DNA of 64,000 nt from Takakia lepidozioides. Lineage: Eukaryota > Plantae > Bryophyta. Below the pieces are notes generated by a model that did no database searches, had not been told where the DNA came from, and was given only the letters and a program-made list of their open reading frames with translations. The number at the start of each line of letters is the position of its first letter. Position 1 is the stretch's first letter. The stretch lies in contig CM060733.1 of NCBI GenBank assembly GCA_030704615.1, positions 23,498,001-23,562,000 on the forward strand, read 5' to 3'. Below, in pieces: positions 2,260 through 53,226 of this stretch. Position numbers and translations under genes: made by a program.

Positions 2260-2299
2260 CTCGAGAAAGATGAGCTCGTATCTGTGAGTGCCAGATACG

Positions 2300-4545: not shown

Positions 4546-5177
4546 CAACGACGCAATGGCGTGAGCGTTGCGCATGAGCGCGCGAGCGTACGCTCACGCA
4601 GGAGTGACGTGGCGTGAGCCTGCATACACGCTGACGTGGCGTGAGCGTCATGTCAGCATGCTGATGTGGTGGTAAATGATGACGTGGCACTGTCCGTCAT
4701 CTGCCACGTTAGCATTAACATGCGCCGCCTATAACCGTGGATGGTCCTATGACCGTGGAATTAATGCAGGGAATCTTGCCTAAATAGAATCAAGACGAGC
4801 GTTGAGGCCTACAATTGCAGCATCCAACATTGTGCAATTACAAATGTTTTTTTCACTTTTACAATTACGAGGACGAAAAAATATCCTCACAAAGTGTGCG
4901 CCATAAAGGCTGCCACGGGAAGACCTTCCTCCCTCCTCAAATAACAATGAGAGTTAGGATCATCTTCAAAAGATGATTGTAGTGCATAGCGACAGCAAGA
5001 CATGTAGACTTCGAACGGTGCAATGACGAATGTGCACTACCTAAAAGTTGTCACTCAGAGCTCACTCCGTATAGTTGGAGGCCATATCATTGCACCGCCG
5101 ACGAATTGATGTGAATTACACATTTCAAATCATGGTCGTCCACATACCACATTGCATAGTTGATGCTACCCATGTAT

Positions 5178-8100: not shown

Positions 8101-8642
8101 TTCCCAATCAATTCCCCGCAACTCACTTTTGAATCCAGCCATTCCTCCCATCGCCCGCAATTTTGGAATGACACTACAAATCTCTTCTTCATCAGCTTCT
8201 CCAACCACAGTAGGAAGGACTGGATTTGGAATTTCACTTATGTCATCATCGGAAGAATCCGAAAGCTCAACGATTGGAGTGGAGGACGTCTGTTTTTTTC
8301 ACCACCACCTCCCTCTTGTCTTCAACGACCGAAGCAGCAGTCCCGGGCGTCACATATGACCCAAGGGACTTTCGCCGAGGCTCTCCAAGTACTCTGTATC
8401 GACCAGGACGCACTCTCCACTGGCTGATATGAGCCGTCTCATCACGGTTTTGGAAAGAGTATTTCACAACTTCCCTTTAAGATCGTACACCTCTTTCTCC
8501 AAAAAGATGGAGCCATTCTGCGCTGAAAACGGGTAGCCAAGACATGTTCCAGAACAATTGCAAATCCATTGTCAAGGACTTCCTGGGAGAACGGCACTGG
8601 TTTGTCGTCAGAGAAGAACTCCGCTTCAGAGGAAGCCATCTT
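5178..8642 (-). pseudogene. MULE-type transposase with N-terminal GCM/WRKY-like Zn domain and C-terminal SWIM finger (frameshifted, at least one intron)
   Basis: DGHPW..CNGHLRC..C..CKFC..C..HFGFHNHP (7594-8208). MFDH (~7180), FMADSAQANF...CLFHW (D and CxxH), CNLAETVHN (E). SWIM CTCPDF..CKH (5178-6011). Confidence 0.8.
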
Positions 8643-9860
8643 CCTTCCTCGCGTACGTTTGTACCTTGCTATCGCAGATCTAGTGTAAATCGGTTTACTG
8701 ATGTCTCCAGAACACAGTTGAAGAATGAGCAGAGAATATGGCGGAGGAAGCTCAGACAACGACTGTGCATATTATGTTATTCTTTCCAGATATGCAGCCG
8801 TCCATTTTAATTACTTTTCTTGTGGGCCCAGTGGTCAGAGTATCCCTAGGAGCAGTGTCGGCAGCTGTTAAACCGTTAACCAGAACCTCATCAATAAACC
8901 CAATAACAAAGCCGACTTCCTGGAAGCATGCCACAGGATCTGAGGATGGGATTGCAGATTAAGTAAATGTATCTTTATACTACTACCAATGATCATGCGC
9001 ACCTGGAAAGTTCCAAATGTGAAACGAATGTGGGGTTTGGCTAACAAGGATGACCGTGTATGATATTCCAAGATTTGTCATCAAACTCTCGTTCATTTAC
9101 ATTTATTTGTGTAAGACTGTGCGCCAAGATTTCTGGGATTCGCTGTTATTTTTAAATATTGAAACCGTTCTAATAAAGAACACGCCGTTTATTTTGGGCG
9201 ACACACGTCAGACATCCATAACTGAATACGAACAGCTGTACACCAATTGCTGGCATGTGCACTAATAAGGGAACGACTATGTGTAACGGTCACGCGAGAG
9301 GGAATCGATGCTTCTAGAGACACGCAAGAACGCAGGCAATCCCGCAAGAAATCGGGAGTCACTGCGTTTTTCTACTTTTCGCGCTTAGAGAGAGAGTGGT
9401 AGTCAAGCTGGAGAGGGTTCCTTCTACAATACGAAAGAGAAGAAAGTCTCTTTATTTTACTTCCCTTAGAGAGAGACGCAGAGCAAGAGAGCAAATGACG
9501 AGGCGTCGTTTGTTGGAGAACACAGGGCCAAGGCAGCAGGTGAACGCGGAGACTGATTCAGAAGAGCAGACGGAGACTGAGGCAGCGGCTGTGACACAGT
9601 CGGCGATAAGAGTGCGCCAGCCTGTGGAGGCAGAGATGATTGCAGGGACACTAAAGAAGGTGGAAGCACGCGGAACGCCGAACCGGGAGAAGGTCCAGAA
9701 ACCCTAGAGCAGACAGAAATTCCAGCAGATGTGAGAGGGAAGAGGAAAGCTGCAGAAGGGGATCCAATTTCAAAACCTAAGAAGGCACCAGTAAGTTTTA
9801 TCTAACTTACATTTCATTGTTGAAGATATGCGTAGAGATTGAGTGGAATGTCCCAGACAG

Positions 9861-10482
9861 GGATTGTCGCTACCGACCATCACAAAAGTGATTTGCTTTC
9901 TACTCCTCTGCTAAGGGTTTACCGCACAATGAGTGGGTGACTATCGGTACAGTCATTCACTGTTGTTCAGATCATACAGTCTGTCTGATTGCCTTTCAAG
10001 GAGTCCTTCCTCTTCCTTCTTTAGCAGGAACTACTGAATTGCGAGCGTCGTTAACGCCATTCGATTCTCCTCATGAGATTTATGTACCTATGTGTTTGAA
10101 GAGAGAGTGAGGGTCGGCATACCGTCAATCATCGTTGTTCAGACCATACAGTCTGTCTGATTGCCTTTCAAGCAGTCCTTCCTCTTCCCATGCTGGCGAC
10201 GGTAATCACAGTGGAGTCAATCTGAATAATCTGCACTTACTGTCCGCCCTAAACTATACTGAATGTCGTTGTCGCCAATCACTTGCACATAGATGTCATT
10301 ACACAACACCGATCCGGCAGGTCGTTATCTTTTGTGATTGTCGTTAACGCCGTTCGCTATCGCTCTCGCTTTTGTTTTGAATACGGCAGTATCAGCTTTG
10401 CTTGTGTAGATTGTGCTGAATTGTTTCACACCATTCATAGTGAGTTTCTTTGAGACAGAGTGATGGTCGTTACCGCCATTCA
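9861..10482. repeat. Degenerate array of a 22-bp palindrome in intron 1 of the cargo gene
   Basis: Variants of TGAATGTCGTTGACGACATTCA at 9861, 9938, 10042, 10260, 10335 and 10461. Also a ~55-bp direct repeat at 9962-10016 / 10134-10188. Confidence 0.6.
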
Positions 10483-12337
10483 CTATTTGCAAATTACTCA
10501 GTCAGAACTGAATGGCATCGTGCAGAAAACTGTGAGGTCCAAGCCTACAGGATCAGAGGGGAAAGGATCTGGAGATGGGGACGAGTCCGCAAAAAGCTCA
10601 GAGAATACAGATGAAGCAGATGAATCTGAAGTGCACTACCTTGACAAGGTGAAAGAACTCATGTCATTCCAGAAGGTAAACTCTCAGGAGGTTATAAGGG
10701 ACATGCTCGTATCTGGAGGGCGTCTGGACATCCCTCTGTGCCGGATGATATCAATGCCTGTTGTGCGTCCACCTCTTTCCCATGACATAACAAAATTGGA
10801 GAGTGATTTTGTGCATGGATATAGACTTGGTGCACAAGTTTTTTATGTGTCACTGACGGATATAAATGGGAAAAGCACATTAGTGTCTCCAGAGATCAGT
10901 GATGGGATGAGTGCTGGAAAGATGCCAATGAGGAGTTCGAGCTGGGCCTCATGATGGGAAAGAACACCCAGCAATTCTGCAACCACATGTTCTACGTCTG
11001 GGACGGCAACCACCGATTGCTGGCATGGATGGGATACATTCAGAAACACCATGCGAAAGACAAAGACAAGCATGTTGCTGTGGAGGCAATGGTTTTGGAT
11101 CCTGGAAACGACATCGCTAGGCTTCTTACAGCTATGCACGACGTGAACAAGTAAGTCATCCAGGAGATTTCATTCCCTTGTAGTGTCTTATTAATCCTCA
11201 AAAAACAGTGTTAAGGAATGCAATGTTTCCAATGTTTTTGCAGATCGACAGAGAAATCGCATGTGACAACAAGCTTGGTTCACACACTATTCCGAATTCA
11301 GAGGATTGGTCTGATGAAGCTGGATGATTTTCGGACAGTACTACCACCCAATATCATCAAGAAGTGTGAAACAGGAAGAGCTGCAGGCACTTGGTATTCT
11401 TTGACACGAGAGGCGTTTCTGGAGTACATGTATGCGGTAAGCCCGAGTCTGTACTCTGTTTACTTTTCGAATACATGTTTGTAGTCCCTTCGGAGCTAAT
11501 CACTACTTGAATCAATGCAGCAAGAACTGGCAGAGGCAGCTGAGAAGGGAAAATCCGAATATTACCGCACTACACCAGAGGAACTAAGGACATCAAAGGG
11601 TGTGGAAGCTGCAATAAAGAAGGAGTTTGAAATGCGAAGAACCAAATTGATGTCCGCCTTCGGAAAGCAGCTTAGAATAGTAGATCCTGGACTTGGTCCT
11701 GAGTTCCTTCAGCAGATCAAAACACACTATGACAAGCATGTGCATCCGGAGATGCAGCAGGAGAAATTGCACCGGCTGGCCATATCGATGGTCGACCCAC
11801 AAACAAAAATAAGGTGGCTGGAGATATGGAACTCAGATCAAACAGTAAGGACTTGAATCAGTTCCCAAAGAGCACCATACAGCCTGGCACAAAAGGTGGA
11901 AGGAATCAGTGATTTGGTGTTTGATAACTGGCTCCACAAGGCTACATTTTGGAGTCAGGTGTGTATTCAAACATGCCGTTTTCTTCTCTTCAAGTATGTG
12001 ATGAGTATCTTATTTGCAATTCTGACAAATATACAATTTGCAGCTCGAAAAGCGCGCCGTCATTGTGCTGGATCAGACTTTGAAGGACCTGAACATTTCG
12101 ATTGTTTCCCTGGAGGCATACATAAGGAAGTGGAGAGGTCTCACCTGGAGATACTGTTTTTTCCGGGAGTTCTCCAAAGATGGTAACATTTTACGGTCCA
12201 ACGACTTTGACAGTCAGGTTGGAGGAGAGTGGGCCATGATGCGAGTTGTGTACAGGTGCAATGTCATACTTGAAACTCTACTGTTTTTTTTGGGAAAAAA
12301 ATGTGGCTTCATAAGGATTGCAATCTTAGATCCAGAT

Positions 12338-13058
12338 TGAATGTCGTTGACGACATTCACTTCTTTGTCTGAGTCATTCTTAAGCGAGTATATGAATTCA
12401 CCTGGTTAGGATCTAAGGGTGTAATTATAGTGTCCTTGATTAGAATTGATAATGTCCTTGAATGGCGTTGACGACATTCACATCCGGAGTTGTTGAGAGG
12501 TCCTCAGAGTTATGTAAATTTTTGTAATTCCATAGAGGTTACAGTGAGGGTTCCTCACTTCATATTGCTGAATGTCAATGCAGACATTCAGTTGTTCTGC
12601 ATTGTTTTTGCCTCTTGCGAGGAATCTGGAGGCTTGATAAGCTCTGTTATGAGAAATCCAAAGTGAATGTCGTTGACGACATTCACTTCTGTGTCTGTAT
12701 TATTCAACAACGACAATTTGAATTTACATGGATTGGGAGCTAAGTAATTGGTTCCTTGTTGGTATTTTTGTGAATGGCGTTGACGCCATTCACATACAGT
12801 GTTGTTGTGAGGTCCTCAGTGATATGTTCGTTATGAATGTGCATTGAGTTTTCCTGGAGGGTTCCTTACTCGAGTTTATGATTTCCATCCTGTGATTTTG
12901 CTTCATTTGAGGAATAATTAGGCTTGATTAGTGAATGTCGTTGACGACATTCACTTCTATGTCTGTGTCATTCCAAAACGATAGTTTGCATTCACCTGGA
13001 TAGGGTGTATTTACAGTATCATTGAATGGAATGTTTTGAATGGCGTTGACGACATTCA
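12338..13058. repeat. Array of seven 22-bp palindromes TGAATG(T/G)CGTTGACG(A/C)CATTCA in a long intron
   Basis: Copies start at 12338, 12459, 12569 (variant core), 12664, 12771, 12932 and 13037. Start-to-start spacing 95-161 bp. Confidence 0.9.
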
Positions 13059-16000
13059 CATCTGGAGCATTCGTGTGGTCTGAAAGGTCCTTGGAGCAGT
13101 TCTCAGAGCCATTTCAATCTATGTTTTTTTCATTCTGTTCTACTTGCATCTTACTCACTGAGCGCTTTTGTGGGTTGGGATTTATCTCTTTTTTCAGGTA
13201 CACGAAATATGTGCTTATGGAAGGAAATCACCTGAGCGGAATTCCAGACTATCTTGACATGTGGTCGGACCCTGCAAACGATCCAACCATGTATACTGCA
13301 GGGATATTGAAGGACTGGAGTCCTTCTCACTTCAGAGACTGTGGGTGGTACCTTGACTGCCCACCGGAGCACACGACCTTTCAAGAACAGCATATGAAAT
13401 ACTTGAACAATAACGCTGAGATGCTGGCGCCTTTGACTGACGAAGAGTACCAACGAAACATAGCAACATTGGCTGCCAAGGAGCCTGATGCTCAGGGAAC
13501 GCCGCAGAAGGGAAAGAAGGCGGGCCGCAAACCAAAAGACAAGGTTGTTGATGTCATAGCCATCTCACCAGCAAAGCCAAAGGACAAAGACAAGTCCAAA
13601 GAGAAGGAAAAGGACAAAGGGAAGGAGAAAGAAAAGGAGATGGAGAGTGGGCAAGACTTTACTGCTGGAAGATATACCCGCACTGTTCAGTGCGTGTTCG
13701 ATGCCAAGCCACACCCTTCCCGTTCTGATTCGGCAGGAGAGATGAAAATTGTTAATGAGGGTTGGCTGTCGATGATGCAGAGTCGAAAGAGAGGATACAC
13801 TGGGGTGCCATCGCCTACCTGGGACAATATAATCTCATTCCTCAATCTGGTGAGAATTCCAGTTTCTTTCCTTTTTCTCTGAAAGTTTCGTTGGCAGTAT
13901 TTCAGTCTCGTTCTTTGAAAACATTCTTGCTTTCGTTCTTATAAAAAACATGTCTATGCGGCCGACATTGTCATTCTCGATATTCCGGATGGCCAGGCTA
14001 TGCCAGAAGTTCTTCCAAAGGGCAAGACGCCAGGCTGGAACAAATTCGAGGACAACTACTGGAGTTGGGTGTTCGGGTTTTGTAATAACTTCCTCTCTGA
14101 TGCAGGGACACTTCTGCTTTTTCAGTCATGTGACAATGATAGTCGTCGGGCATTGGCATCATACCTCAAGTCTTCAAGGTTTGAAGTTTTGCGCACATGG
14201 AATTGTGTGAACAGCCTCTACCTTGTGAAAGGGGTTTCCCTGGTCAGCTGGTATGTCGTCTCCCTTCTGCTTGTGCTTTCATGATGAGTTTCAATGTTCT
14301 CTGCAGCTCCACTCTAGTAGAATCTGTTATGATCGACAATGATCATCACCGATTCGTGATAAAAATGATTTTTTTGTGTCTGAGTTCTGAATAGCCGATG
14401 TACACACTTCCACTATAGATTGTGTTTACCACACTAACCTGCTATCTTTGGCAGACGAGGATGTTCGAGGCGATCTGCCTGCGGAGGATTCGCACCTCAA
14501 AGACACCATCCTCCATCCGCAGCTTTGAGATTTTTGACCAGGGTTGTTTCGTCAACCCCCCCTATGAGCCCCATGTCGATGACATTTTGTACAACTTCAT
14601 GCAGTCCAGTCAGACTCTGAAGAGACCAGATGGCACTCCCTGGAGAGGTGCAAAGGAAAAGTCCCCAGCGTTCATGCAAATACTGCTGGAGTCATGCAGC
14701 CACCGCTCTGCACGGGTGGTTGATCTTTCTGTGTCCACAAGTTCGTTCTTTCCCTTCCGAATTGGTTTTCTTTCAACAGTTTCATCTGCTTAAATCCCCC
14801 CCACCAAACTGTTCATGTCCTCCTGTGTGGTGCAGGAGCAACTTACCATGCATGCAAGGCAGGCGGAAGAAGCCTTTTTGGCATAGAGGGTGATTCTGAC
14901 CTCTACAATACAGTGCTCCTCCCCCTTTTGTCTGGCTCCACTTCAGGCACACAGACTGATCGGATTCAAATTCGAAATGATGACGATCCCGAAAATAAGC
15001 AGGTCGACAACGACTTTTCATGTGAGTAAGTGCTAAACCCTCTTTGGGAGCCATACTCAATTTCTCAATAACATCAAAGTTACAGTAATAACTTTTTCAG
15101 GCTGTCTTTCAGGAAAGGCAGCGGTGGATCTTCAGGAGATACAGTCATTTCTAGCGAGTCTGTTTTCGACAGCCCCCTTTCCAATTTTCTGCTTCCTGTT
15201 TATGCCGAAGCAATGGCACTTCACGCGGCTGAGTCCCTATCCCTTGATTTTTTAGTGGCCAGCCGTAGGTGTATCCAGCGTGGATCCGGTGTTCTAAAAT
15301 ACATAGACTTAGATGCAGAGGAAGCGGGGATACATTGTACTGACTCTGAGTCAGACTGAACTGTATTCTTTTAATATTTATTTTCATACTATCTGGAAAA
15401 CGTTGAATCCCCTTCCTCCACCGTAGTTGTTCCTTTAGAACAAATAATAATCACATAATCAACTTTCATTTAAATTGCAATATGTATGAATCCATCTCAC
15501 AAACCTCCCTGACTCTTCTCATATCCATTGTGCATTCATCTACAGTGTATTCATGTGTGCTCCATTCATGATTTTTTTCCTTTGTTCAACATCCATTGTA
15601 CATTCATCCTCTGTACTCTTTAATCCACCCCACAAACCTTCCACACTCATTTCATATACGTTGTGCATTCGTCAAAGTTTTGGTCATGCATCTTCCTATC
15701 ATGAATTTTTGTCATTGCTTAACATCCATTATACATTCATCTATTTTACTCTTATCCATCCCTCATTCATCCATCTATATTCATTTTTCACACTCATACA
15801 TCTGTTTATCATCCAACTGTACATTCATCCATCATTTATTCAATGCCTTTTATTATGTCGTCCAGCTTGTTTCCGCGGTAAATGGTGCCAATCCGCGGGA
15901 ATACACTCCACTTCTTTCTGGGCGCGTGGTGACGCGGCCTTCACGTGTGATGACGTGGAGTGAGCCCCGTGACGTGGCATTTGCGCAAGGTGACGTGGCG

Positions 16001-16065
16001 TGAGCGCAGTTGCGCTCACGCGCTCACGTGACCAGGCTCACGCCGAGGCATCCCTGTATCCGGAT

Positions 16066-16858
16066 GAAGGCATTTGTCTTCTGGACTTGTTTGGCGGGAT
16101 CGGCACCGGATTGGCTGCTGTGTTACAAGCAGGTGTACGAGTTTGGCGTTACCTGTATGTGGAGAGGGATGAGACTGCATGACGCGTTTCACTTCGTTAT
16201 GTTGCTCAGTTGGTGCAGCAATACCATGAGTTGTTGTCGGTGTCTGCAGTTTGTGGATATCATCAGGCCTTGCCAGCAGACATTTCGTTGCTAGGGCGCA
16301 TGATTTGGAGTAGGTTGGCTCCATTGATCTGGTAGTGGCAGGTTGGCCTTACCAAGGACATTCATCAGCCGGGCATGACAATGGATTATGAGACTCGAGG
16401 TCGGGTCTGTCTTGGGAGATGATGCGGGTTTTGCGCTACTTGCAGCTTCATCAAGCTGTATCTTCAGCATACATCTTGGAGAATGTGCCACTGATAGGCG
16501 ATTCTCGGGCCAGGGTGATGGCCAGTGTGCTTCAAGTCTGATCATGGCTTGGGTCCACAGTGTTGCTAGATGCAGCTACAGTGGGGTCACGGGCTCATCG
16601 TCCACGGTTATGGTGGACTAACTTGATGCCACCCGCACTGCTCAAGCGTGCATTTGATGGGGTGCAGCGGCCAGCACACCTCACAGTGGATAGCATTTTG
16701 GACACAGGGAGGCAGTCTCAGTGTGTGAGACATGATGACCGTTCGCCTTTGGTAGTGGTCAACAAAATGGGTCAACCACGAGCAACATTACTTACACTGC
16801 TCAGCTTCCCAAGATCGCATGCTTTCCGGGATAGTGGACCTGGCCTCCTGTGGGATGC
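16066..16858 (+). pseudogene. DNMT3-like C5-cytosine methyltransferase domain of Gypsy copy 1 (motifs I-VIII)
   Basis: ICLLDLFGGIGTG; YLYVERD; DLVVAGWPYQG; YILENV; SRAHRPRLWWTN. Confidence 0.85.
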
Positions 16859-17178
16859 TTGACACCACCTCTTGAGAAGGTTCCTGATGGAGATTGGTTA
16901 TGTCCACACTGCTTGGGATAGTGGCAGTGGACATGACTAAGGCAGCTAACAATACATGGGAGGCCAAGCTCATAGGAGTCAATACACGAGATCCCAGGCT
17001 CAAGTTCACAGGTTGCAAGAGGGCGACTAACGATGGGGCAACTCTTGCACCCGGCCTCTTGATCTGTCGAGTTTGAGTGAAGTAGGGACAGTGGTGGAGG
17101 ACTTAGTGAGGCTATGGTCCTATCGCATCTTGTGGCTACCTGGACTTAGAGGGACCTAAGCACCAGCTAGGGGGCCAA

Positions 17179-17839
17179 TTGTGTGGACTAGTGACTGCCA
17201 TAGTAGGCAGCATAGTAGCAGCCTAGTGACTGACTAGTTGTAGCCTAGTGGTTGGACTAGTGGTATACTAGTGTGTGTTGTGTGGTTTGGGACAGCGATG
17301 TAGTTGTGTAGCGATATGTATGCGCACGACAGCTGTCAAGTTATTTCACCACTAGTGTGAAACTAGCTAGGAAATAACTAGCTTTTACATATTGACATTT
17401 GGGATTGGCCCAAGTGTCAATCCAGGGGGTCAAGGCTGATTTAGGCCCTGGAGTGATTATCTTCACGGCAAGCGCGGGAGGCTCATCTTTCTCAAGTTGA
17501 GCCTCACCGCGCCTAGCTATGGCGCCGTAGTGTGGATTCCCCATGGTGTGGGGTGCACTTGGCTTGACTTGTATTTGAGTGATGAGTTTATATATGCATG
17601 AGTTTATGCTTCAGCTTTGTGAGCTCGCATGAGCTTGTGTTTGTATTCTTCTCCTTTATCATTGTGTGGATTAGTGACTGCCATAGTGGGCAGCATAGTG
17701 GCAGCCTAGTGACTGACTAGTTGTAGCCTAGTGGCTAGACTAGTGGCTAGACTAGTGGTATACTAGTGTGTGTTGTGCACATGTGTTGTGTGGTTTGGGA
17801 CAACGATGTAGTTGTGTAGCGATATGTATGCGCACTTCA
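17179..17839 (+). repeat. 3' terminal B1-A2-B2 repeat block of copy 1
   Basis: B (ACTAGT-rich) occurs twice, flanking A. Purine tract AGGGGG precedes B1. B1/A2 junction is GACA-GC-TGTC. Confidence 0.9.
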
Positions 17840-32640: not shown

Positions 32641-35600
32641 TGTCGTGCGCATACGTATCGCTACACAACTACATCGTTGTACAAAACCACACAACACATG
32701 TGCACGCCACACACTAGTATATCACTAGTCCACCACTAGTCCAATCACTAGTCCAACCACTAGGCTACAACTAGTCAGTCACTAGGCTACCACTATGCTG
32801 CCCACTATGGCAGTCACTAGTCCACACAATGATAAAGAAGAAGAATACAAGCACGAGCTCACAAATCTGAAGCATAAACTCATGCATATATAACCTCATC
32901 ACTCAAATACAAGTCAAGCCAAGTGCACCCCACGCCATGAGGAATCCACACTACGGCGCCATAGCTAGGCGCGGTGAGGCTCAACTCGAGAAAGATGAGC
33001 CTCCCGCGCTTGCCGTGAAGATAACCACTCCAGGACCTAAATCTGCCTTGACCCTTGGATTGACACTTGGGCCAATCCCAAATGTCAATATGTAAAAGCT
33101 AGCTATTTCCTAGCTAGTTTCACACTAGTGGTAAAATAACTTGACAGCTGTCGTGCGCATACGTATCGCTACACAACTACATCGCTGTACAAAACCACAC
33201 AACACATGTGCACGCCACACACTAGTATGTCACTAGTCCACCACTAGTCCAACCACTAGGCTACAACTAGTCAGTCACTAGGCTGCCACTATGCTGCCCA
33301 CAATGGCAGTCACTAGTCCACACAATCGCCCCCCTAGCTGGTGCTTAGGTCCCTCTAAGTCCAGGTAGCCACAAGATGTGATAGTGACCATAGCCTCACT
33401 AAGTCCTCCACCACTGTCCCTACTACACTCAAACTCGATAGATCAAGAGGCCGGGTGCAAGAGTTGCCCCATCGTTAGTCGCCGTCTTGCAACCTGTGAA
33501 CTTGAGCTTGGGATCTCATGTATTGACTTCTATGAGCTTGGCCTCCCATGTCTTGTTAGCTGCCTCCAGTCATGTCCACTGCCACTATCCCAAGCAGTGT
33601 GGACACAACCAATCTCCGTCAGGAACCTTCTCAAGAGGTGGTGTCAAGCATCCCATATGCCAACCCCTTGAACATCGATCACACACCAGCATGGTGGCTG
33701 CCCCTTTGGCAGACCCACAGAGTATGCACCTCAAACCTGCAGGTACCACTGCCAAGTTTGGGTCAACTCTGCCATCGACATTGGGAAGGTGACATGGCGC
33801 ACAATTACGCACATGGTCTTTCCAAGTCATGTCATCTCGACCCTCCAAGATCAGGACTCCTGAGGGCAACACCTCTTGAACCCTCAGAATAACACGCCCT
33901 GCAGTAACATCCAGAGTCGTAGGAGCAGTCTGCTGCAAATAAACATAGTCACCAGGGCTAAACCTCCGAACCCCATGACGATATCCTCCACCACGTATAG
34001 TGGCATACCTCAACGTATCACGGTGTTGTGCAATGGCAAGGTTCTCAAAAGCCATGGGCATGACTTTCTTGAACAACTCTGCACGCTGATCACATGCACG
34101 TACCCACACGTCCGGATCGTCAAGGTTAAGGACTTGAGCAGTGTCCCTACGAATGGCTGCAGGCAAATCCGGCTCTCGGCCAAAGAGAAGGAAATATGGT
34201 GAGAAAGAGGCAAATGATGCTTGTTTGCTGAACCTGTAGCCCATGGTTAACCAAGGAACCTAAAGATCCCAATCTCCTAGGTGTCCCTTCTGCAAGCCAT
34301 ACTTGCGCAAACCCCTCTTCACCGTCTGAACAACTCTCTCTGCCAAGCCATCGGCCTCAGGATGATCCCGAGAAGTGGTGCGGTGGTCTATCAAGGCTTT
34401 ATCACACAAAGCCTGAAACTCCCCCAAGAACTCTCTCCCTTGGTCCGTGAGTACCTCAGCTGGAGCACCAAATCGGCTAAGCACACGATCCAAGAATGCA
34501 TACGCAGCCCCCTCACTAGCCTTGTCAGGCAATGGAACCAACTCAATCCACTTGGAGAAGTGCTCCACCATCACCAACACATATCTGTGGTGGCGCATAG
34601 TCAGTGGCAATGGTCCTGCGAAGTCAAGACTTCACCTATAGCCCAATCCCATGATTGGTAAAGGATGCAACTGTGGTGTAGGGGCGTTGAATGAAGCACG
34701 CACCCTGTCACACACCATGCACCTAGCCACGAACTGTTGCACATCTGTATGCATACCACGCCACCAATACTGCCCCTGCAGTAAACTATGAGTGCGTCGC
34801 ACTCCAAAATGCCCCAACTCCTCATGGGCATGCCGCACTAACCGTGCACGCTGTGTGGGGTGAGGCACAATCCTCACCCGACCATCCTCCCATACTCGAA
34901 GTAGGTGTATCCCCTCCCACTTGAACCTCTTGGCTCGTTGCAGGATCTGATCCCTCTCCTTGGCAGTCATAGTGGCTGCCGTGTCTCCCGTGTGGAGGTA
35001 GTCCAACACATCCGAATCCTCATGTATATCTCTGGCACCACCTGGCTCATCACTAGCCTCAGGGTCCTCAGCCACTCCGTCTACAGTCATCCCTGTTGTA
35101 GGTCCAACCTGACCTCCCGATGCCAAGATACACAAAAATACAGATGCGTGCCATCCTGGCACCATCTCCTCGTCCGTCTCACCATGCCACCGAGCTACAG
35201 TGTCATCCTGCTGGCTCATGCATGGATTGCGACTCAATCCATCCGCATCCCGATTGACCAAACCCGGTCGATGCAAAACCTGAAAGTCATACTCTTGGAG
35301 TATGAGTGCCCACCGTGCAAGCTTCCCCGTAAGCTTGTCTGACTCCATCAACCACTTGAGTGGCTGGTGATCTGTGACAAAGGTGAAAAGATTGCCGTAT
35401 AGATAGCACCTGAAGTGTGCCACGGCCCACACTGCAGCTAAGCACTCTCCCTCATATGAGCTGTACTTAGCCTCTGCAACGTTGTTCGAGCGGCTAGCAT
35501 AAGCCACTACGAACTCTCTTCCCTCATCATCCACCTGTGTGAGCACCGCTCCAAGCCCCAGCATGCTCCAATCCGTATGCAGCTGAAAGGGACGCCCCCT

Positions 35601-37107
35601 AATAGGTCGTCTCAGGATAGGCGCCGAGGTCAACCTCGCCTTGAGCTCTTGAAAAGCTCGTTCCTGCTCATCTTCCCACTGCCATTCCTGGTCCACCTTG
35701 GTCAGCTTGGTTAGAGCCTTTGCAATGGTACTAAATCCCTTGACAAACCGTCTATGATAGTTTGTCAACCCCATGAAAGCTCGAACTCGGCTCACATCCG
35801 TGGGGCGTAGAATTTGTGCAATGGCCTCTACCTTAGTCTGCTGTACCCCCAATCCTCCAGGATATATCATGTGACCTAGATACTCAATCTGGTTGTGGAA
35901 AAACTTGCACTTCCCCGGATGCAACTTCAATCCGTGCGCTCTCAAGCGCTCCAATACCACCTGAAGGTGTCTCTCATGCTCCTCCATTGTAACACTAAAG
36001 ATGATGATGTCATCTATGTAGCACCGAGCAAAGTCCACCCCTGCTAGAATCCTATCCATGACTCTCTGAAACTCTGCAGGAGCATTCTTAAGCCCAAATG
36101 GTAAGAACCGCCACTGATATAGGCAATCCTTGTCGTGCTCATTGATCCCCCAGAATGTCGTCTTCTGCTTGTCCGCCTCGTTGATTGGCAACTGGTGATA
36201 TCCGGATCGTAAATCCAAAGTGCTAAAGGCCTTAGCATGCCCGATGGCATCAAAGATCTCCTCTGAGGTTGGCATGGCATACTTATCGGACTCGGTCTGA
36301 CGATTTACAGGCCGGTAATCACCGCACATACGTCTCTCCGTCCAATTGCCATAGACATCCTTCTTGGCTGGCATCACTGTGGCTAAAGCATACTCTCCAC
36401 CAGAGAGCTCCACCAAACCTGCCTCCCAGAGATCTTGAGTCCTCATCTGAATCAAAGACCTCTCCATGTCACTGTATCTATAGGGTCTCCGAAAGATTGG
36501 CGTGTCAGTGGCCAACTCAATACGGATCTCTTGACCCTTCAGTGCTCCCAAGTCCTTCAAACTGAAAACAAAGCAATTCCTATAAGCCCTCAAGAACCGC
36601 CGTATACGTTGTCTCTCTCCTCCGGTGACAATGGGTCCAATGTCAGGCTCCCAATTGTCCTCCGTAACTGCAACCTTAAGTCCAGTGGGCTTAGAGGTAG
36701 AGGACGCGTCCAGTGGTTGCTATGTTGCAATCTCTTGAGCAGTACTCCCTGCCTGCTCAGTCAATGACAAGGCCTCATCCTGCCCCATCATCTCATCCTT
36801 GAGGACCTCCTCAACCCGAGAAGAATCCCCAACCTCATCCATCACAGCCGCCTTGGCTGCCAACTCCCTCTGAACCTCGAGCACCTCCCACATGTGCCAT
36901 GGATGCATGCACCCCGTGGTCCTCACATGCTCGCCCCCACTCACTACCTGTACCGTCTTGGTAGGCAGAGAGACCATCGAGGGAAGTGTACTCTGCACTC
37001 TGCGTTGCTCAGCCAGAGCCAAGCTGATAATCCAGGTCAAGCAATTGAGATCCATTGCTTGCCCCAACACTTGACGACGTGATGCCTCAGAAAGAGATGA
37101 CATCGCC
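32641..37107 (-). mobile_element. DNMT/PHD Gypsy-type element, copy 2 (3' half: DNMT motif X, RT, RNase H, integrase, PHD, B-A-B end)
   Basis: B2 32641-32829, A2 32830-33146, B1 33149-33325. RMCGDYR, LDLRSGYHQ, YIDD, TDHQPL, rve VLTDQGREF..DGLAER. Confidence 0.92.
33585..36593 (-). pseudogene. Gypsy pol RT-RNaseH-integrase with C-terminal PHD finger (few stops)
   Basis: ORFs 34632-36593, 34260-34610 and 33585-34244. PHD CILCGS..MLVCDRCSRGWHMGCLTPPLEKVPDGDWLCPHC. Confidence 0.9.
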
Positions 37108-44397: not shown

Positions 44398-47300
44398 TGC
44401 CTTCCAAAGGGGTGTGCTCCAGTAGGCAAGGGTGGTGGCAGGCATGGCGTAAGGGCACACAGTCTGCTGTGAAGGTGGGCAGTGTCCTGGCGCTGGTGCA
44501 ATACCCATGTGAACTTGCTTCCCAACTTAGACCCAATATCACTACTTCCTGGTGGGATTCCAAGGGGGCAGAGTGGCGGAGACAACTGTGAGTTGTGCAA
44601 ACCAGTGCTGAATTGTATCACAGTGTGACTGACTTACTGACCAAGGCAGTGGATTGGAAGTGTGCACGTCAACTGTTTCCGAAGTCTGATGGAGGTGGTG
44701 ATGATAAAGAGAATCACAGAATTCAGGGGGAACAGGAGAGCAAGCCTGTGGTGGTGCGTCTGTAACCACAAATGAATCATGGGAATTATAGGCCGCCGCC
44801 AGGGAGTATGTGAGAACTACATGAACATGTTCGAAACCCGAAGATAACCTGGGAACAGCTTTTAATGGCGAGAACGTTTTGGTGTTAAATAAATAAATAT
44901 TTTTAAAAAAAAAAAACCATTTTGATCTAATTTAAATGATTTAGAGCCTAATTGGTCATATCTTTGTCAAATGGACTCCGTTTGACTCAGTTTTTGGGGG
45001 GATAGCTGCAGAAAGGGGAAATCTATGTATCTAGAGGTGGTTTTAGTTTTTTTTTGGACTCTGCTAAAAATCTATGGAATTTTTTTGAATGTGAGTGTGC
45101 TATGAAAGATCCACAATTTTGTTTCTAGAACCTATTGTGGTCTACATGAGAGACAAATCTGGGGATGTCCTCCTTATATGGCTGGGGGAAATGAGGACGT
45201 AATTGAAGGGCAGGTCTCTTCTCTTAGCCTGTGCACACAATGGGACAATATTTATGTTTCTTAAGGAACTCAGACTGATTTGAATGGAGAGCAGTTGGAC
45301 GAGTTGATTGCATACTAGGAGTCAGGCATTAGCAATAGACAACAAACTGCTTTAGTTGGCGTTGAGGGCCTTAATATTGCTTTGGACAGTCAGAACTCTG
45401 TTGGAGCAAGCAGTTCTGCAACTGTAGGTGAAATACCAAAGTGGGTGGAAGCTAGGCTTGGAACACAGCCAAAGACAGCCCCGGGGACCAAGGTGTTCAG
45501 CCACAAGGCCGTGGTGTACTGGAGCAGAGGAGCAGGAGTTGCACAAGTTTTTGCAATCAGACCTGGTTGCAGCCGGACACGCTCTGCACAAGGCAACCAC
45601 GAACGGGGGTTCATTAGCAACAAACAGTTTATTCTGCTTGAAGGAGATGCAGTCATTCGCAACGAAGACACCCGCAACCGTCTCAAAGCTTTCGAGTTGA
45701 GAGACTGTCAGACCCTACTTTTATTTTCTTTAGTATTCAGTGAGCGGGAGATAGGGGAGTATTGTTTTGTCTCTACCTGGCAGAGAGAGGAGGACGGTTG
45801 GTTAGAGCGAGCTACTGTAGCTTGGGATAAGGTTAGTGGCAGGTTTCTGGATATAGATATACCTCCCACACCTTACCATCATGCAGAGCGAGGCACTTTG
45901 AGAGAAGTCTGGCAGTTGATAGCATAGATCAGAATTAGATCTTGCTTGGTCGGACCTCTATTCTTCCCCTCCCTCTCTTTACTATTTTCATTACTTTGTA
46001 CTTGTAGTTGCCAAAGCCTCTCTTGGTGGAGGCCAGTCAGTCCGGGGTTTTTGGGCTGGGGTATTTTGCAGGAGCAGCACTGTGGAGGGATTTTGGTGTG
46101 GGGGTGTTGATGTTTTGGTTTCTTGTGTTTGGATCCCCCCCCCACACCTGCATGTTTGACTGTTCGCCATGTTAGTTTTGTGTGGGCGCTTGCTTTCATA
46201 GGGATTAGGCCAGATTTGATCACCGGTCAATCCTAGAGTATGCTGTCAGTGGTGAGGCTGGAGTGATGACCAGCAAGACCACCAATGTTTCTTCTATGGT
46301 GAGGCTGGGTTGATGACCAGCCAACCATAGGAGTTCTTGCGGTGGATGCAGGTGCAGGTGCCCTTAGCCACTGGGATATGACCCTTAATCCACAACAGGT
46401 GCTCACCCGTGTCACTATTAGAATTAGTACTAGAGCCTTATAGTGTCATCCAAGACCTGAGGGTCCACCTCCTGTTCCTCCTCAGCAGTGTCATCCTGAC
46501 GGAGGAGGCATGGGAGGCATGGGATTTATGTGTGGGGCAGCACTACCACTAGTGCAGGTGGAGTCTGCTGCAACCGTCACTCGAAGAGCAGCACAAGTTC
46601 CTGAGCCACGAGGTGCAGAGGTGGAGTTAGATCCACAGCGTGGGGAGACAAGCCGTCAGGCTAGGTTGCCTCAATCATTCATCTTGGCGGAGACAGTGTC
46701 GACGACATCCATGGCACCTAATTCTCGCCCCACGGATACCGAGGCGGAGGTTATTGTGTCATTGGGAAGAGCTACACGTGCAGCACTGACACCTGCCGCC
46801 AAGGCTTGTGCAGCCAGTGTGTTGTTGGGGGCGGCCACCTTTGTATGTCAGGCCCCATTGTTCTCGGCAACCATGATTGCGACGCCGGGGGTAAGACCAG
46901 CTGCAGTGTTCAGACTAGCAGCAACACTATGTGAGAATGGGGAGATCACTTCATCTTCTGCGGAGTTAGTGGAAGGTGTAGTGGCAGAGGGATCCTCGGA
47001 TTTGAGGGTCAAGACTGCCACGGCTGCGCCATGGCAAGCTGCAGCTGCCAGGTTGACGGAGCTGCCAGCTAGGCCAGCCTTTGAGCGCGCCATGGTGACA
47101 CATGGAGTTGTCTTGTTAGACAACCAGGATGGCATTTTCTCTTTGAGTGGACCGGCAGGCAAGAGGTACCGGCCACTGCTGGTCTTGTTGGACTCGGGAG
47201 CTCAGCCACTGATGTTGGGCAGAGCTGCTATTGCAGGTTTGGGCCTCATGGAGGCGGATATGGAGCCTTGTCATTTCCAGATACAAACATCTCTGGGAGG

Positions 47301-47898
47301 ATCAGAGCAGGCTCGGGGCATGACATGGCGTGAGTTGGCCATTAGACTACAGCCGGATCATCCTATAGATGGCTCAGTGATGCGAGTCAAGGCCATTGTG
47401 ACAAATGCGGTCTCTTACGATGTCCTCGTTGGTGGGGCAGTGTTATATCCCATGGGCTTCACCCTGGATTTTTGGGAGGAGTCAGCACCCTACAGGCCTG
47501 GATGGCAGTCAGGGGATGGTCGTCGTGTACACATCCCTGTGATATTCATTGGGGGTGTTGCTGCTACCCAATAGGGCAAGATGCCAACACTAGCAGCCTT
47601 CACAGTTGCAGTTAGTTGGCCTGAAGAGTTGCTGGAGGGCAATGCCCAAGCAGAGGATGTGCCACCTCCAGCAGAGCAAGATGACATGCATGGTATGGCG
47701 GAGTTGTCTGCCATGGTTGCTCACATTCCATTGTGGGGTACAAACAAGGATTTGCAGCAGACTGCTGATAGACGGGTGCAACAAGCCTGGGTAGAGGCCT
47801 TCGCACCGTTAGGAGAGGAGGAGAGTGCGGTGATTGCACCAGGACTACCTCAGTTGTCGCCATTGGACATCACACCTCTTGTGTGGCAGTGCCCGGAT

Positions 47899-48840
47899 GA
47901 AGGCATATGCCTTCTGGACTTGTTTGGCGGGATCAGCACTGGATTGGCTGCAGTGCTGTAGGCAGGTGTACGAGTTTGATGTTACCTGTATGTGGAGAGG
48001 GATGAGACTGCACGACGCGTCTCACTACGCCATGTTGCTCAATTGGTGCAGCAGTACCCTAATTTGTTGCCAGTGTTTGCAGTTCGTGGATACCAACAAG
48101 CATTTCCAGCAGACATCTCTTTGCTGGGGGCGCATGGTTTGGAGCGGGTTGACCCTATTCACTTGGTAGTGGCAGGTTGGCCCTGCCAAGGGCATTCATC
48201 AGCCGGGCATGGCAATGGGTTACAAGACTCAAGATCACGCCTATTTTGGGAAATGTTGAGGGTCCTATGCTATTTACAACTTTAGCAGACAGACTCTCCA
48301 GCATATATCTTGGAGAATGTGCCATTGATGGGTGATTCTCGGGCCAAGGTGATGGCCAGTGTGCATCAAGTGCGGTCTTGGCTTGGGTTAGCAGTGTTGC
48401 TGGATGCTGCTGCAGTGGGATCACGGGCTCATCGCCCACGACTATGGTGGACCAACTTGATGCCACCTGCACTACTCAAGCGTGCATTTGATGGGGTGTA
48501 GCGGCCACCACACCTGACAGTGGATAGCATTTTGGACATAGGGAGACAGTCTCAGCGTGTGAGACACGATGACCGATCACCTTTGGCAGTGGTCAATAAG
48601 GTGGGTCTACACTGCTCAGTTTTCCAGGATCCCATTCTTTTCGGGATGGTGGACCTGGCCTCTTGTGGGATAGCCAGTTGCACCAATTAGTGGAGCCCAA
48701 TGCTGACGAGCGCGAGCGGGCGATGGGTTTTACCACTGGTACCACGGCGGTGCCATCTCTTTCTGAGGCATCACGTCGTCAGGTGTTGGGGCAAGCAATG
48801 GACCTCAATTGCTTGACTTGGATTATCAGCTTAGCTATGG
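47899..48840 (+). pseudogene. DNMT3-like C5-cytosine methyltransferase domain (motifs I-X) within Gypsy pol
   Basis: I LLDLFGGISTG; II YVERD; IV LVVAGWPCQG; VI YILENV; VIII RAHRPRLWWTN; IX ERERAMGF; X RRQVLGQAM. Confidence 0.9.
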
Positions 48841-49324
48841 CTGAGCAACGCAGAGTACGGAGTACACTTCCCTTGAGGGTCTCCCTGCCTACCGAGACGG
48901 TACAGGCAGCGAGTGGGGGCGAACAGGTGAGGACCACGAGGTGCAGGCCGCATCCATGGCACACGTGGGAGTGCTCGAGGTTCAGAAGGAGTTGGCAGCC
49001 AAGGCGGCGGTGATGGATGAGGTTGGGGATTTTTCTCGGGTTGAGGAGGTCCTCAAGGATGGGTTGATGGGGCAGGATGAGACATTGTCACTGACAGAGG
49101 AGGTAGTGGTCACTGCTTAAGAGATTGACGGGACGCGTCTTCTACCTCTAAGCCTGCTGGACTCAAGGTTGCAGTCACGGAGGACAACTGCGAACCTGAT
49201 GTTGGACCTATAGTCACCGGAGGAGAGAGACGACGTATACGGCGGTTCTTGAGGGTTTACATGAACTGCTTTGCCTTCAGTTTGAAGGACTTAAGCACTG
49301 AAGGGTCAACAGATTCGCATTGAA

Positions 49325-52177
49325 TTGGCTACTGACACGCCAATCTTTCGGAGACCCTATAGATACAGTGACATGGAGAGGTCCTTGATTCAGATGAGAA
49401 CTCATGACCTTTGGGAGGCTGGTTTGGTGGAGCTATCTGGGGGAGAGTATGCTTCAGCCACAGTGATGCCAGCCAAGAAGGATGTCTATGGCAATTGGAC
49501 GGAGAGACGTATGTGCAGTGATTACCGGCCTGTAAATCGTCAAACCAAGTCCGATAGGTATACCATGCCGACACCAGAGGAGATCTTTGATGTCATTGGG
49601 CATGCCAAGGTCTTTAGCACTTTGGATTTACGATCCGGATATCACCAGTTGCCGATCAAGGAGGCGGATAAGCAAAAGACGGCATTCTGGGGGATCAATG
49701 AGCATGGGAAGGATTGCCTATACCAGTGGCGGTTCTTACCAATTGGGCTTAAGAACGCTTCGGTAGAAATTCAGAGAGAGTCGTGGACTACGGTGGAGGA
49801 GCATGAGAGACACCTTCAGTTGATAGTTGAGTGCTTGAGGGCGTACGGATTGAAGTTACATCCGAGGAAGTGCAAGTTTTTCCGAGTATCTGGGTCACAT
49901 GATATATCCTAGAGGATTGGGGGTACAGCAGACTAAGGTAGAGTCCATTGCACAGATTCCACGTCCCACGGATGTGAACCGAGTTCGAGCTTTCATGGGG
50001 TTAGCAAACTATTATAGACGGTTTGTTAAGGGATTTAGTGCCATTGCAAAGGCTCTAACGAAACTGACCAATGTGGACCAGGAGTGGCAGTGGGAAGATG
50101 AGCAAGAACAAACTTTTCAAGAGCTCAAGGCGAGGTTGACCTCGGCGCCCATCTTGAGACGACCTATCAGGGGGCGTCATTTTCAGCTGCATACAGATTG
50201 AAGCATGCTGGGGCTTGGAGCGGTGATCACATAAGTGGATGATGAGGGAAGAGAATTTGTAGTGGCTTATGCTAGCCGCTCGAACAACGCTGCAGAGTCT
50301 AAGTATAGCTCATATGAGGGAGAATGCTTAGCTTTCAGTGTGGGCCGTGGCACACTTCAGGTATTATCTATACGACAATCTCTTCACCCTTGTCACGGAT
50401 CACCAACCACTCAAGTGGTTGATGGAGTCAGACAAGCTTACGGGGAAGCTTGCACGGTGGGCACTCATCCTTCAAGAGTATGACTTTCAGGTTGTGCATC
50501 GACCGGGTTTGGTCAATCGGGATGCAGATGGGTTGAGTTGCAATCCATGCACGAGCCAGCAGGATGACACTGGAGCTCGGTGGCATGGTGAGACGGATGA
50601 GGAGATGGTGCCCGGATGGCATGCATCTGCATTTCTGTGTATCTTGGCAGCGGAAGGCCAGGTTGGACCTGCAATAGGGATGACTGTAGATCAAGTGTCT
50701 GAGGACCCTGAGGCCAACAATGAGCAAGGTGGCGCCAAAGATATACATGAAGATTCAGCTGTGTTGGACTATCTCCGCATTGGAGACACGGCAGCCACTG
50801 TGACTACCAAGGAGAGGGATCGGATCCTACAACGAGCCAAGAGGTTCAAGTAGGAAGGGACACACCTGCTCCGAGTGTGGGAAGATGGTCGAATGAGGAT
50901 TGTGCCTCACCCAACAGCGGGCACGGTTAGTGCGGCATGCCCATGAGGAGTTGGGGCATTTTGGGGTGCGACGCACTCATAGTCTACTGCAGGGGCAGTA
51001 TTGGTGGCGTGGTATGCAAACAGAGGTACAACAATTTGTGGCTAGGTGCATGGTGTGTGACAGGGTGCATGCTTCATTCAACGCCCCTACACCACAATTG
51101 CACCCTCTTTCGATCATGGGATTGGGCTATAGGTGGAGTCTTGACTTCGCAGGGCCGTTATCATTGACCATGCGCCACAACAAGTACGTGTTGGTGATGG
51201 TGGAGCACTTTTCCAAGTGGATCGAGTTGGTTCCATTGCCTGATAAGGCTAGTGAGGGAGTTGCGTATGTATTCTTGGATTGTGTACTTAGCCGATTCGG
51301 TGCTCCAGCTGAGGTACTCACGGACCAAGGGAGAGAGTTCTTGGGGGAGTTTCAGGCGTTGTGTGACAAGGCCTTGGTAGACCACCGCACCACTTCTCGG
51401 GATCATCCTGAGGCAGATGGCTTGGCAAAGAGGGTTGTTCAGAGAGTGAAGAGGGGTTTGCGCAAGTATGGCTTGCAGAAGGGACACCTAGGAGATTGGG
51501 ACCTTCAGTTACCTTGGTTAACCATGGGCTAAAGGTTCAACAAGCAAGCATCACTTGCCTCTTTCTCACCATACTTTCTTCGCTTTGGCCGAGAGCCGGA
51601 TTTGATCCATTCGTAGAGAAGCTGCTACAGTTCTCAACCTTGACGATCCGGACATGTGGGCACGTGCATGTGATCAGCGTGCAGAGTTGTTCAAGAAAGT
51701 CATGCCCATGGCTTTCGAGAACCTTGCCATTGCACAACATCGTGATATGTTGAGGTATGCTATCATACGTGGTGGGGCTATCGTCCTGGGGTTCGGAGAT
51801 TTAACCCTGGTGACTATGTTTATCTGCAGCAGACTGCTCATATGACCTTGGATGTGACTGCAGGACGTACTAATTTGAGGGTTTGAGAGGTGTTGCCCTC
51901 AGGAGTCCTGATCTTGGAGGGTCAGGATGGCATGATTTGGAAGGACCATGTGCGTAATTGCGCGTCATGTCACCTTCCAAATGTTGAAGGAAGGGTTGAC
52001 CCAAACCTGGCAGTGGTACCTGCAAGTTTGAGGTGCATGTTGTGTGGGTCTGCTAGAGGGGCAGCCACCATGCTGGTGTGTGATCGATGCTCTAGAGGTT
52101 GGCATATGGGATGCTTGACTCCACCTCTTGAGATGGTTCCTGATGGGGATTGGTTATGTCCGCATTGCATTGGATAG
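49325..52177 (+). pseudogene. RT-RNaseH-integrase-PHD of copy 3, frameshifted
   Basis: Colinear with copy 2. PHD CMLCGS..VCDRC..WHMGC..WLCPHC at ~52030-52170. Confidence 0.88.
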
Positions 52178-53226
52178 TGGGAATAGATACAACCATGGAA
52201 AGGCTAACAAGAAATGCAAGGCCAAGCTACTAGGAGACCTTGAACACACGAGATCCTGGCTCAAGTTCACAGATTGCAAGACGGCGACTAACGATGGGGC
52301 TACTCTTGTACCCGGCCTCTTGGTCTAGAGAGTTTGAGTACAATAGGGACAGTGATAGAGGACTTAGTACGGCTGTGGCTATTACATCTTGTAGCTATCT
52401 GGAGTTAGAGAGACCTATCCACCAGTTAGGGGGGCGATTGTGGCAGACTACTTTATTGTGCATATATGTGTGGTGTAGTTTGGACAACGATGTAGTTATG
52501 TAGCGATACGTATGCGCACGACAGCTATCAAGTTAAATAAACACAGTGTGAAACTAACTAGAATAAAATCTAGTTATTTGTATTTAACACTTGGATTTAG
52601 TTCAAGTGTTAAGTCAGGTGTCAAGTTTAGTTTGACACCTGAACCGTCTTATCTTCACGAGAGCGTCAGTCGTGCGGCTCATCTCTCTCGAGTTGAGCCT
52701 GCATGACCGAGCTCCTTCACTGCTTAGAATCTGAGTGTGCTTATGAAGGGAGAATAAGATGTTGTGGGGTGGAGTCCCCATAGCTTGGGGTGCCCCTGGC
52801 TTGACTCTTAGTTTAACGAGTGATGGTGTCAACAGTGTGATTTTAGTTTTCAATCTATTGTGGCAGACTACTTTATTGTGCATATATGTGTGGTGTAGTT
52901 TGGACAGCGATGTAGTTGTGTAGCGATACGTATGCGCACGACATGTGCTTCAACAAGAAGATGGTGTCCTACCAACCCTGTGATTGGCCCGAACTCATTT
53001 GTCACTGTGTGCAGGTTTGTGGGCAATGCCCGGGTATTAATCTCGTCTTCACCTATGCATGTTGAGGACCAATGCTTCATGAGATAGATAGGTGGAGGTA
53101 GAGGACCAAATTGAGGAGGGCTTATCGTGTACATCTGGGAGCCCACAAATGATTGCAGAGGGTTTATTTCTTTTTGCTTGACACAAGCATGGTGAATTGC
53201 TGGATTTTGCATTCCCAGCACATGAG

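Follow-up and report, generated by a model that had tools for sequence, protein, structure and literature searches.

Can a retrotransposon of a land plant carry its own DNA methyltransferase, and if so, where did the enzyme come from and what does it do for the element? The question is raised by positions 47899 to 48840 of a 64,000-nucleotide stretch of DNA (the window), whose forward strand translates there to a non-permuted C5 cytosine methyltransferase (DNMT) with motifs I to X in linear order. A preliminary description had proposed a DNMT3-like domain transposed inside the pol of a multicopy Gypsy-type family. All the motifs that it named were located in that order (Table 1), and Pfam DNA_methylase matched the domain when stops were read as X (E value = 1e-10). 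Across all six frames of the window, the spaced pattern of motifs gave a single match, compared with none in 100 shuffled windows. The copy that holds this domain (copy B) is a dead element: four stops (47959, 47977, 48283 and 48499) and a frameshift near 48610 interrupt the domain, and the YxDD of its RT is deleted. The catalytic PC, ENV and RxR are retained in the DNMT.

Table 1 Features of the three element copies in the window
Feature	Position	Strand	Basis or remark
Copy A left part: repeat A1, gag, protease, linker	1933..4545	+	Self-comparison
11.5-kb insertion splitting copy A	4546..16055		10-bp duplication GTATCCGGAT at 4536 and 16056
Copy A DNMT, N-terminal four-fifths	16066..16858	+	Frameshift; catalytic Cys -> Tyr
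Copy A 3' split repeats B1 (17178-17331), A2 (17331-17661), B2	17178..17839	+	Self-comparison; ends in CA
Copy C: last ~30 DNMT codons, linker, RT, RNase H, integrase, PHD, B1-A2-B2	32641..37107	-	Self-comparison, Pfam
Copy C in-frame stop TAG (36722-36720), then CAA CCA	36714..36722	-	Exact type I readthrough context
Copy B Gag-side linker end, aspartic-protease-like domain, linker	46430..47898 (start approximate)	+	Self-comparison
Copy B DNMT3-type C5 cytosine methyltransferase domain	47899..48840	+	Motifs, Pfam, structure-sequence match
Copy B DNMT motif FGGISTG	47923-47943	+	
Copy B DNMT motif YVERD	47989-48003	+	
Copy B DNMT motif GWPCQG	48175-48192	+	
Copy B DNMT motif ENV	48313-48321	+	
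Copy B DNMT motif RAHRPRLWWTN	48424-48456	+	
Copy B DNMT motif ERAMGF	48714-48731	+	Past frameshift
Copy B DNMT motif RQVLGQ	48777-48794	+	Past frameshift
Copy B linker, RT, RNase H, integrase (H2C2, rve), C-terminal PHD finger	48841..52170	+	Pfam, translation; decayed
Copy B 3' split repeats B1 (52437-52523), A2, B2 (52857-52943)	52437..52943	+	Self-comparison; ends in CACGACA

We compared the domain with solved structures at three levels. By sequence, copy B matched DNMT3A with 39.7 bits, DNMT3B with 36, M.HhaI with 21 and DRM with 19.7, and the matches listed at an E value of 1 or less included neither DNMT1 nor CMT. A profile of 43 family sequences gave 96.7 bits for DNMT3A and 87 for DNMT3B, with M.HhaI and DRM within 42.8 to 64.7 and DNMT2 at 27 bits versus 97 for DNMT3A. 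By fold, the best match to a predicted model of the relative P0008 (pLDDT 84.6) was again DNMT3A (E value = 2e-18, target TM 0.82). Across 150 homologous domains the catalytic motifs were conserved at 92 to 99% (Cys 97%, Glu of ENV 99%, RxR arginines 95% and 97%); the target-recognition region of the element DNMT did not align with that of DNMT3A. These comparisons support the assignment of a DNMT3-type domain, which resembles DNMT3A/B more than it does DRM, DNMT1/CMT, DNMT2 or bacterial enzymes, as had been proposed in setting it apart from MET1, CMT and permuted DRM. A permuted DRM was rejected on the linear motif order and on the scores, in which DNMT3A exceeds DRM. In 39% of the 150 domains the catalytic motif reads EC instead of PC.

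Self-comparison revealed three insertions of the element within the window, all of them broken. Copy B (about 46430 to 52943) has the order PR-DNMT-RT-RH-IN-PHD and is missing its 5' end (repeat A1 and most of gag); its protease (LLDSG, 47185 to 47199) had no Pfam match and was called from its location and its DSG motif. A purine run lies directly upstream of its B1, and its B1/A2 junction, GACAGCTATC, is at 52520. Copy A (1933 to 17839) is a single element cut in two by an 11.5-kb insertion and flanked by the 4-bp target duplication AAGC (1929 to 1932 and 17840 to 17843). Its repeat A1 begins with TGTC, extends to 2259 and is 95.8% identical to A2, its gag has a CCHC knuckle at 2836 to 2877, and its palindromic junction, GACAGCTGTC, is at 17328; a deletion fuses its DNMT straight to the PHD finger, hence it has no RT. 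Copy C is nearly open from RT through RNase H and integrase to PHD, with the RT YIDD at 36020 to 36009, the PHD finger reaching to 33594 and the junction GACAGCTGTC at 33143; it has a DNMT remnant (37107 to 37020) and no protease. The full PR-DNMT-RT order is therefore found in copy B only, so that the claim of a DNMT between protease and RT in three copies holds for one; copies A and C, each lacking one neighbor (RT in A, protease in C), are consistent fragments.

The 11.5-kb insertion is likely Mutator-like, and gave a weak SWIM zinc-finger match that fell below the cut-off (E value = 0.0047). Degenerate inverted ends, palindromic repeats around 12340 to 12960 and several ORFs without a Pfam match were also seen in it. 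Copy A itself interrupts the gag of a Copia element (1522 to 21805; LTR-like repeats 1522 to 1748 and 21581 to 21805, 93% identical), so that three layers are nested here, the Copia element, copy A and the 11.5-kb insertion.

Next, we looked at relatives of the element elsewhere. A metagenome scan with a single-protein query gave no match, and a tighter alignment query gave 79 related loci. RT lies downstream of DNMT in 37 of the 41 related loci that extend 2.2 kb or more beyond it, and in mapped proteins the DNMT stands among the domains of the element, which bears out the claim that the domain was transposed as part of the element. We mapped domains in 212 proteins. The layout PR-DNMT-RT-RH-IN occurs in Marchantia, Sphagnum, Closterium and Klebsormidium; a second layout, RT-RH-DNMT-IN-PHD, occurs in chlorophytes (Haematococcus P0063, Scenedesmus P0075 and many further proteins) and is complete in 25 of the 212. 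The two layouts indicate that the DNMT shifted its position within the polyprotein.

The description of the DNMT as lying inside pol is imprecise, since Gag-PR-DNMT and RT-RH-IN-PHD share a frame but are divided by a conserved stop. Among the 79 loci, 45 have DNMT and RT close together and 31 have them in frame (some of the 31 being the same insertion counted twice). The stop falls at the same linker position in all 31 (22 TAG, 9 TAA); it is followed by CAA CCC in 25 loci, by CAA CTA in 2 and by CAA CCA in 1, and the remaining 3 show decayed variants. Type I readthrough, as in tobacco mosaic virus (TMV), uses the signal UAG CAR YYA, and in the available text of the sources this motif is reported to function in plants with all three stop codons (PMC11166343, PMC13517186). 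Compared with TMV, copy C and 3 of the 31 loci carry UAG-CAR-YYA exactly and most loci carry CAA CCC; readthrough here is a prediction from sequence. Most full-length Gag-PR-DNMT proteins that we checked terminate 97 to 164 residues past motif IX, several of them at exactly 124, 140 or 142. The conserved stop and the matching protein ends together indicate that the DNMT is encoded in one frame with Gag and PR, and readthrough of this stop is the likely source of RT-RH-IN-PHD. P0049 of Closterium, P0061 of Klebsormidium and P0081 are each predicted as one protein, and the stop thus seems specific to part of the lineage. Where it is present, it predicts where, and how much, DNMT would be made.

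At the ends of the element, copy A has the complete repeat layout A1-ORFs-B1-A2-B2, copies B and C retain B-A-B, and A-ORFs-B-A-B was found in 6 of the 12 loci with a PHD finger and a tail of at least 500 bp, with 5 others stopping after a single B. A purine run precedes B1. Copies A and C share with loci L011, L020 and L069 a B1/A2 junction that forms the palindrome GACA-GC-TGTC, and variants of it occur elsewhere. The termini are TG..CA, if single changes by decay are disregarded, and 4-bp target duplications flank all five loci with both ends as well as copy A (6/6 complete copies). These termini and duplications, together with a DDE integrase, are features of Ty3/Gypsy elements. A canonical two-LTR Ty3/Gypsy element was rejected because of the split direct repeats, the lack of two full terminal LTRs and the lack of a tRNA primer-binding site after A1 on inspection by eye; DIRS/Ngaro identity was rejected because the element has an rve integrase and 4-bp duplications, not a tyrosine recombinase without duplication. 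Copies with the shorter layout A-ORFs-B were seen in L030 (5113 to 14440), L048 (6162 to 13709), L016, L021 and L027, two of them with clean 4-bp duplications. Such copies may come from recombination between B1 and B2 or from an integrase cutting both junctions.

The host was placed with a COG3 gene in the window (26013 to 28373, minus strand), one uninterrupted frame of 785 codons that is 79% identical to Physcomitrium COG3. In a tree of 26 rows it was sister to the Physcomitrium sequence (100/99), and this placement at 79% identity indicates a moss not close to Physcomitrium, in agreement with the land-plant genome named in the preliminary description. Contigs of sequencing run X1 match the window region without differences; over COG3 they also show variant letters, which suggest a second copy or allele. 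The summed contig depth of run X1, which is not a copy number, was about 0.6 to 1.3 million over copy C versus 100 to 430 over COG3, and indicates that the element family is very abundant in this moss. Depth over the DNMT was 0.40 to 0.73 million versus 0.44 to 0.98 million over the bins of linker, RT and RNase H, and no deep joint skipping the DNMT was present among the run X1 joints listed. Sequencing run X7 (organism B) gave one 5-kb contig from DNMT to PHD and no COG3 cover, an absence that proves nothing. No RNA run with the element was among the runs listed, and run X9, whose contigs cover the element, is RNA only by guess and so gives no evidence of expression. The window further contains a LINE remnant (zf-RVT, RVT_1), a DDE_1 transposase fragment and degraded PPR-like repeats (PPR by eye), at 29259 to 32668 and 330 to 947 on the minus strand, 44000 to 44500 and 54689 to 55352, and two pairs of direct repeats (38070 to 39031 with 42942 to 43871, 94% identical; 56844 to 58504 with 61890 to 63525, 72% identical).

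We then considered whether the element acquired its domain from a DNMT3 of its moss host, in a recent capture separate from that of the algal elements, a reading that we regard as very improbable. Mosses do have host DNMT3 genes, according to the available text of PMC6453930, and our DNMT tree, with six phage methyltransferases as its outgroup, contains no host DNMT3 rows, as no search gave the sequence of a plant host DNMT3. The nearest named relatives, however, come from retroelements of liverworts, Sphagnum and algae: 66 longer homologous proteins include Marchantia, Calypogeia, Sphagnum, Closterium, Klebsormidium and Haematococcus, and none of the 66 is named as a host DNMT3. A separate count gave 546 representatives at an E value of 1e-10 or less. 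Quick trees on chosen subsets (DNMT, 53 rows; RT, 48 rows) agree: both show a starred clade of bryophytes, place Closterium and Klebsormidium outside it and separate the chlorophyte type. The window groups in the RT tree with the PR-DNMT-RT elements of Klebsormidium (P0061) and Closterium at 100% SH-aLRT, and the DNMT tree mirrors this, with branching at its base lacking resolution. No named fern, seed plant or Physcomitrium was among the best 120 RT relatives of 7,994 scored candidates. A scan of viral contigs gave six loci whose matching ORFs are prokaryotic-type methyltransferases, and these were taken as outgroup only. In the DNMT tree the Sphagnum elements cluster with Marchantia and Calypogeia, apart from the window moss; a single clade of moss elements was rejected (AU test, P value = 0.001, for a group chosen post hoc from the tree), and the grouping would reflect either old paralogy or horizontal transfer. 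These results support an old green-plant lineage that would include the Klebsormidium elements and is not special to the window genome.

Another rival reading makes the DNMT a passenger that the element took up a single time, has transported since and now lets drift. We estimated dN/dS between window copies by the method of Nei and Gojobori, with the DNMT value from copies A and B. The DNMT gave 0.17 (CI 0.10 to 0.26), RT 0.24, RNase H 0.22, integrase 0.18, protease 0.35 and the linkers 0.32 to 0.43; the domain therefore does not evolve neutrally among the copies, a point that the preliminary description had left to be settled. The DNMT ratio is lowered because the dS of the DNMT, at 0.46, exceeds the 0.26 to 0.33 of its flanks (protease and linkers) in the same pair (A, 16066 to 16800; B, 47899 to 48600). 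The raised dS also hints that subfamilies may have exchanged modules. For a sister family in decay, 19 pairs versus L012 gave a dN/dS of 0.42 to 0.97 for DNMT and 0.33 to 0.69 for RT, and variants common to at least 4 of 30 distinct copies gave ratios of 0.58 for DNMT, 0.41 for RT and 0.77 for the upstream linker. These sister-family values suggest that the DNMT may be under somewhat less constraint than RT. Singletons in the 30 copies were neutral (pN/pS, DNMT 1.09), and together with the broken state of every window copy they are what a drifting passenger would leave; RT singletons, however, were equally neutral (1.02), as expected after insertion. The passenger is further opposed by a dN/dS of 0.11 to 0.18 for the DNMT between families or subfamilies, where dS is near saturation, by retention of the domain from chlorophytes to bryophytes in two positions, and by the steady run X1 depth over the DNMT with no deep skipping joint listed. 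A neutral passenger is largely refuted by dN/dS and by the conservation of the catalytic residues, and we give it hardly any credence. The DNMT has evidently been under purifying selection while the families were active, perhaps slightly less than RT.

What the enzyme does can be proposed as a sequence of steps, of which the window's own copies are capable of none. We consider it moderately probable that the DNMT is packaged with Gag and methylates the element's own cDNA de novo. Most ribosomes would halt after the DNMT, and readthrough would give the rarer RT-RNase H-integrase-PHD part. The protease would free the DNMT within the particle, where, ahead of integration or in the course of it, the enzyme could mark new cDNA de novo. 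The B+A unit may serve as LTR (a purine tract lies ahead of B1), and the integrase may cut the palindromic CA-GC-TG junction to give ends like processed retroviral ends, with insertion producing the 4-bp duplication. Circle junctions of the IS3 family are an analogue of this junction. The PHD finger would direct integration to chromatin with unmodified H3K4, and the likely benefit would be a new copy that resembles host heterochromatin or is damped at once. In the available text of PMC5890265, the Dnmt3 of a Symbiodinium retrotransposon methylates CG de novo in yeast. The window sequence itself bears no footprint of self-methylation, as CpG depletion of the element (observed/expected, 0.45 to 0.55) is no stronger than that of host COG3 (0.52) or the LINE (0.33). 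C-to-T decay in 30 related copies was as high at CHG (21.5%) as at CG (18.9%), a pattern explained by host silencing.

The integrase terminates in a PHD finger whose nearest counterparts are CHD4, KDM5B PHD1, PHF12, DPF3 and PHF21A; it also resembles BAZ2 fingers. In the accessible part of PMC4225485, KDM5B PHD1 binds unmethylated H3K4. The likeness to the CHD4, KDM5B PHD1, PHF21A and BAZ2 fingers would give the element a reader of chromatin in addition to a writer, and the DNMT might then act on host chromatin, either by methylating the target site or host loci or by binding DNA in competition with host DNMT3 and silencing factors, so that the element escapes or shapes silencing. The position of the DNMT directly before the integrase in chlorophyte relatives fits action at integration, and in heterochromatin moss DNMT3b methylates CG and CHH de novo (PMC6453930, available text). 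In the moss element, however, the stop lies between the two domains, with the DNMT on its Gag side and the PHD finger beyond it, so that they are normally separate proteins, and we regard action on host chromatin as rather unlikely.

Because the element lacks a tRNA primer site, a role at priming can also be proposed, with a DNMT fold that is catalytically competent but retained for nucleic-acid binding, or for methylation of RNA or RNA:DNA hybrids, in the particle, for example in packaging or priming. Nucleic-acid chaperones are usually found at Gag level, which is where the DNMT sits; inspection by eye showed no primer-binding site following A1, and the Klebsormidium domain gave no DNA activity in yeast in the portion of PMC5890265 consulted. 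Against this, the closest structures are the DNA enzymes DNMT3A/B, with DNMT2 at 27 versus 97 bits, and the catalytic residues are conserved; we consider such a role quite unlikely. Returning to methylation of the element's own cDNA, a broader account is possible but tentative: a lineage as old as the green plants would pack a DNMT3-type enzyme at Gag levels via a leaky stop and methylate its own cDNA, its DDE integrase would open the palindromic junction in a circular intermediate, and it would have spread among mosses and liverworts partly horizontally, reaching thousands of copies here, enough to affect the host methylome.

The available text of the 2018 report (PMC5890265) leaves the role of retrotransposon DNMTs open. 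Relatives of the element occur in Marchantia, a model with methylation mutants, which makes the question testable. Counts of DNA methyltransferase genes in bryophytes include transposon proteins, and the combination of split repeats, an integrase and 4-bp duplications implies a replication route between LTR and DIRS that we did not find worked out in the literature searched. That search returned no land-plant report of a DNMT3-Gypsy element; subscription papers, Repbase, figures and bioRxiv supplements may hold one. The searchable supplements of PMC5890265 do not contain Marchantia or Sphagnum, and its main text does not contain Marchantia; PMC12344493, in the text available, repeats the streptophyte case without bryophyte elements, and the accessible text of bioRxiv 2021.11.30.470311, PMC8557442, PMC6453930, bioRxiv 363937, PMC6317226 and PMC11982613 has no land-plant elements. 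Within this literature, the conserved stop, the palindromic junction of the split repeats, the 4-bp target duplications and the PHD finger at the end of the integrase are previously unreported features of the lineage.

Among known systems, the Ty3/gypsy clades Chlamyvir, Tcn1 and Phygy of REXdb (Neumann et al. 2019, PMC6317226) share with the moss element a Ty3/gypsy domain order, occurrence in algae or mosses and duplications of 4 to 5 bp. As described in the available text they are ordinary two-LTR elements, which sets the moss element apart, and the main text mentions neither PHD nor methyltransferase. SymbioDIRS-Dnmt3 is similar in having a DNMT3-type domain in a retrotransposon and A-coding-B-A-B repeats, the layout that PMC5890265, in its accessible text, defines as DIRS-like and gives for SymbioDIRS. 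It integrates by a tyrosine recombinase, whereas the moss element encodes a DDE integrase and is flanked by 4-bp target duplications.

The closest likeness is to KnitGypsy-Dnmt3 of Klebsormidium nitens, described in the available text of de Mendoza et al. 2018 (PMC5890265) as a Gypsy element with a DNMT3-type domain and DIRS-like repeats, under purifying selection (Ka/Ks < 0.2). Both elements have an intronless, non-permuted DNMT3-type domain, a Gypsy polyprotein, DIRS-like repeats and purifying selection; in the moss these take the form of a PR-RT-RH-IN set, an intronless DNMT3 in the RT frame with one stop between, the A-coding-B-A-B layout and a DNMT dN/dS of 0.17. Moreover, Klebsormidium P0061 (PR-DNMT-RT-RH-IN), which we infer from its species and architecture to be a KnitGypsy-Dnmt3 copy, falls in the RT clade of the window. 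According to the same text, the Klebsormidium element gave no methylation in yeast, a result that its authors call inconclusive. The differences are the moss host with relatives in liverworts and Sphagnum, the stop that parts DNMT from RT where P0061 is one predicted protein, and the C-terminal PHD finger, a term absent from the main text of PMC5890265, figures aside. That report, in the text available, treats the capture as specific to the K. nitens lineage; our data point to a capture that would be much older. Most likely, the moss element belongs to the KnitGypsy-Dnmt3 lineage and would not be a fresh capture in mosses. The feature is real, and is a land-plant variant of the known algal DNMT3-Gypsy elements with coding and end structures that had not been reported for them.
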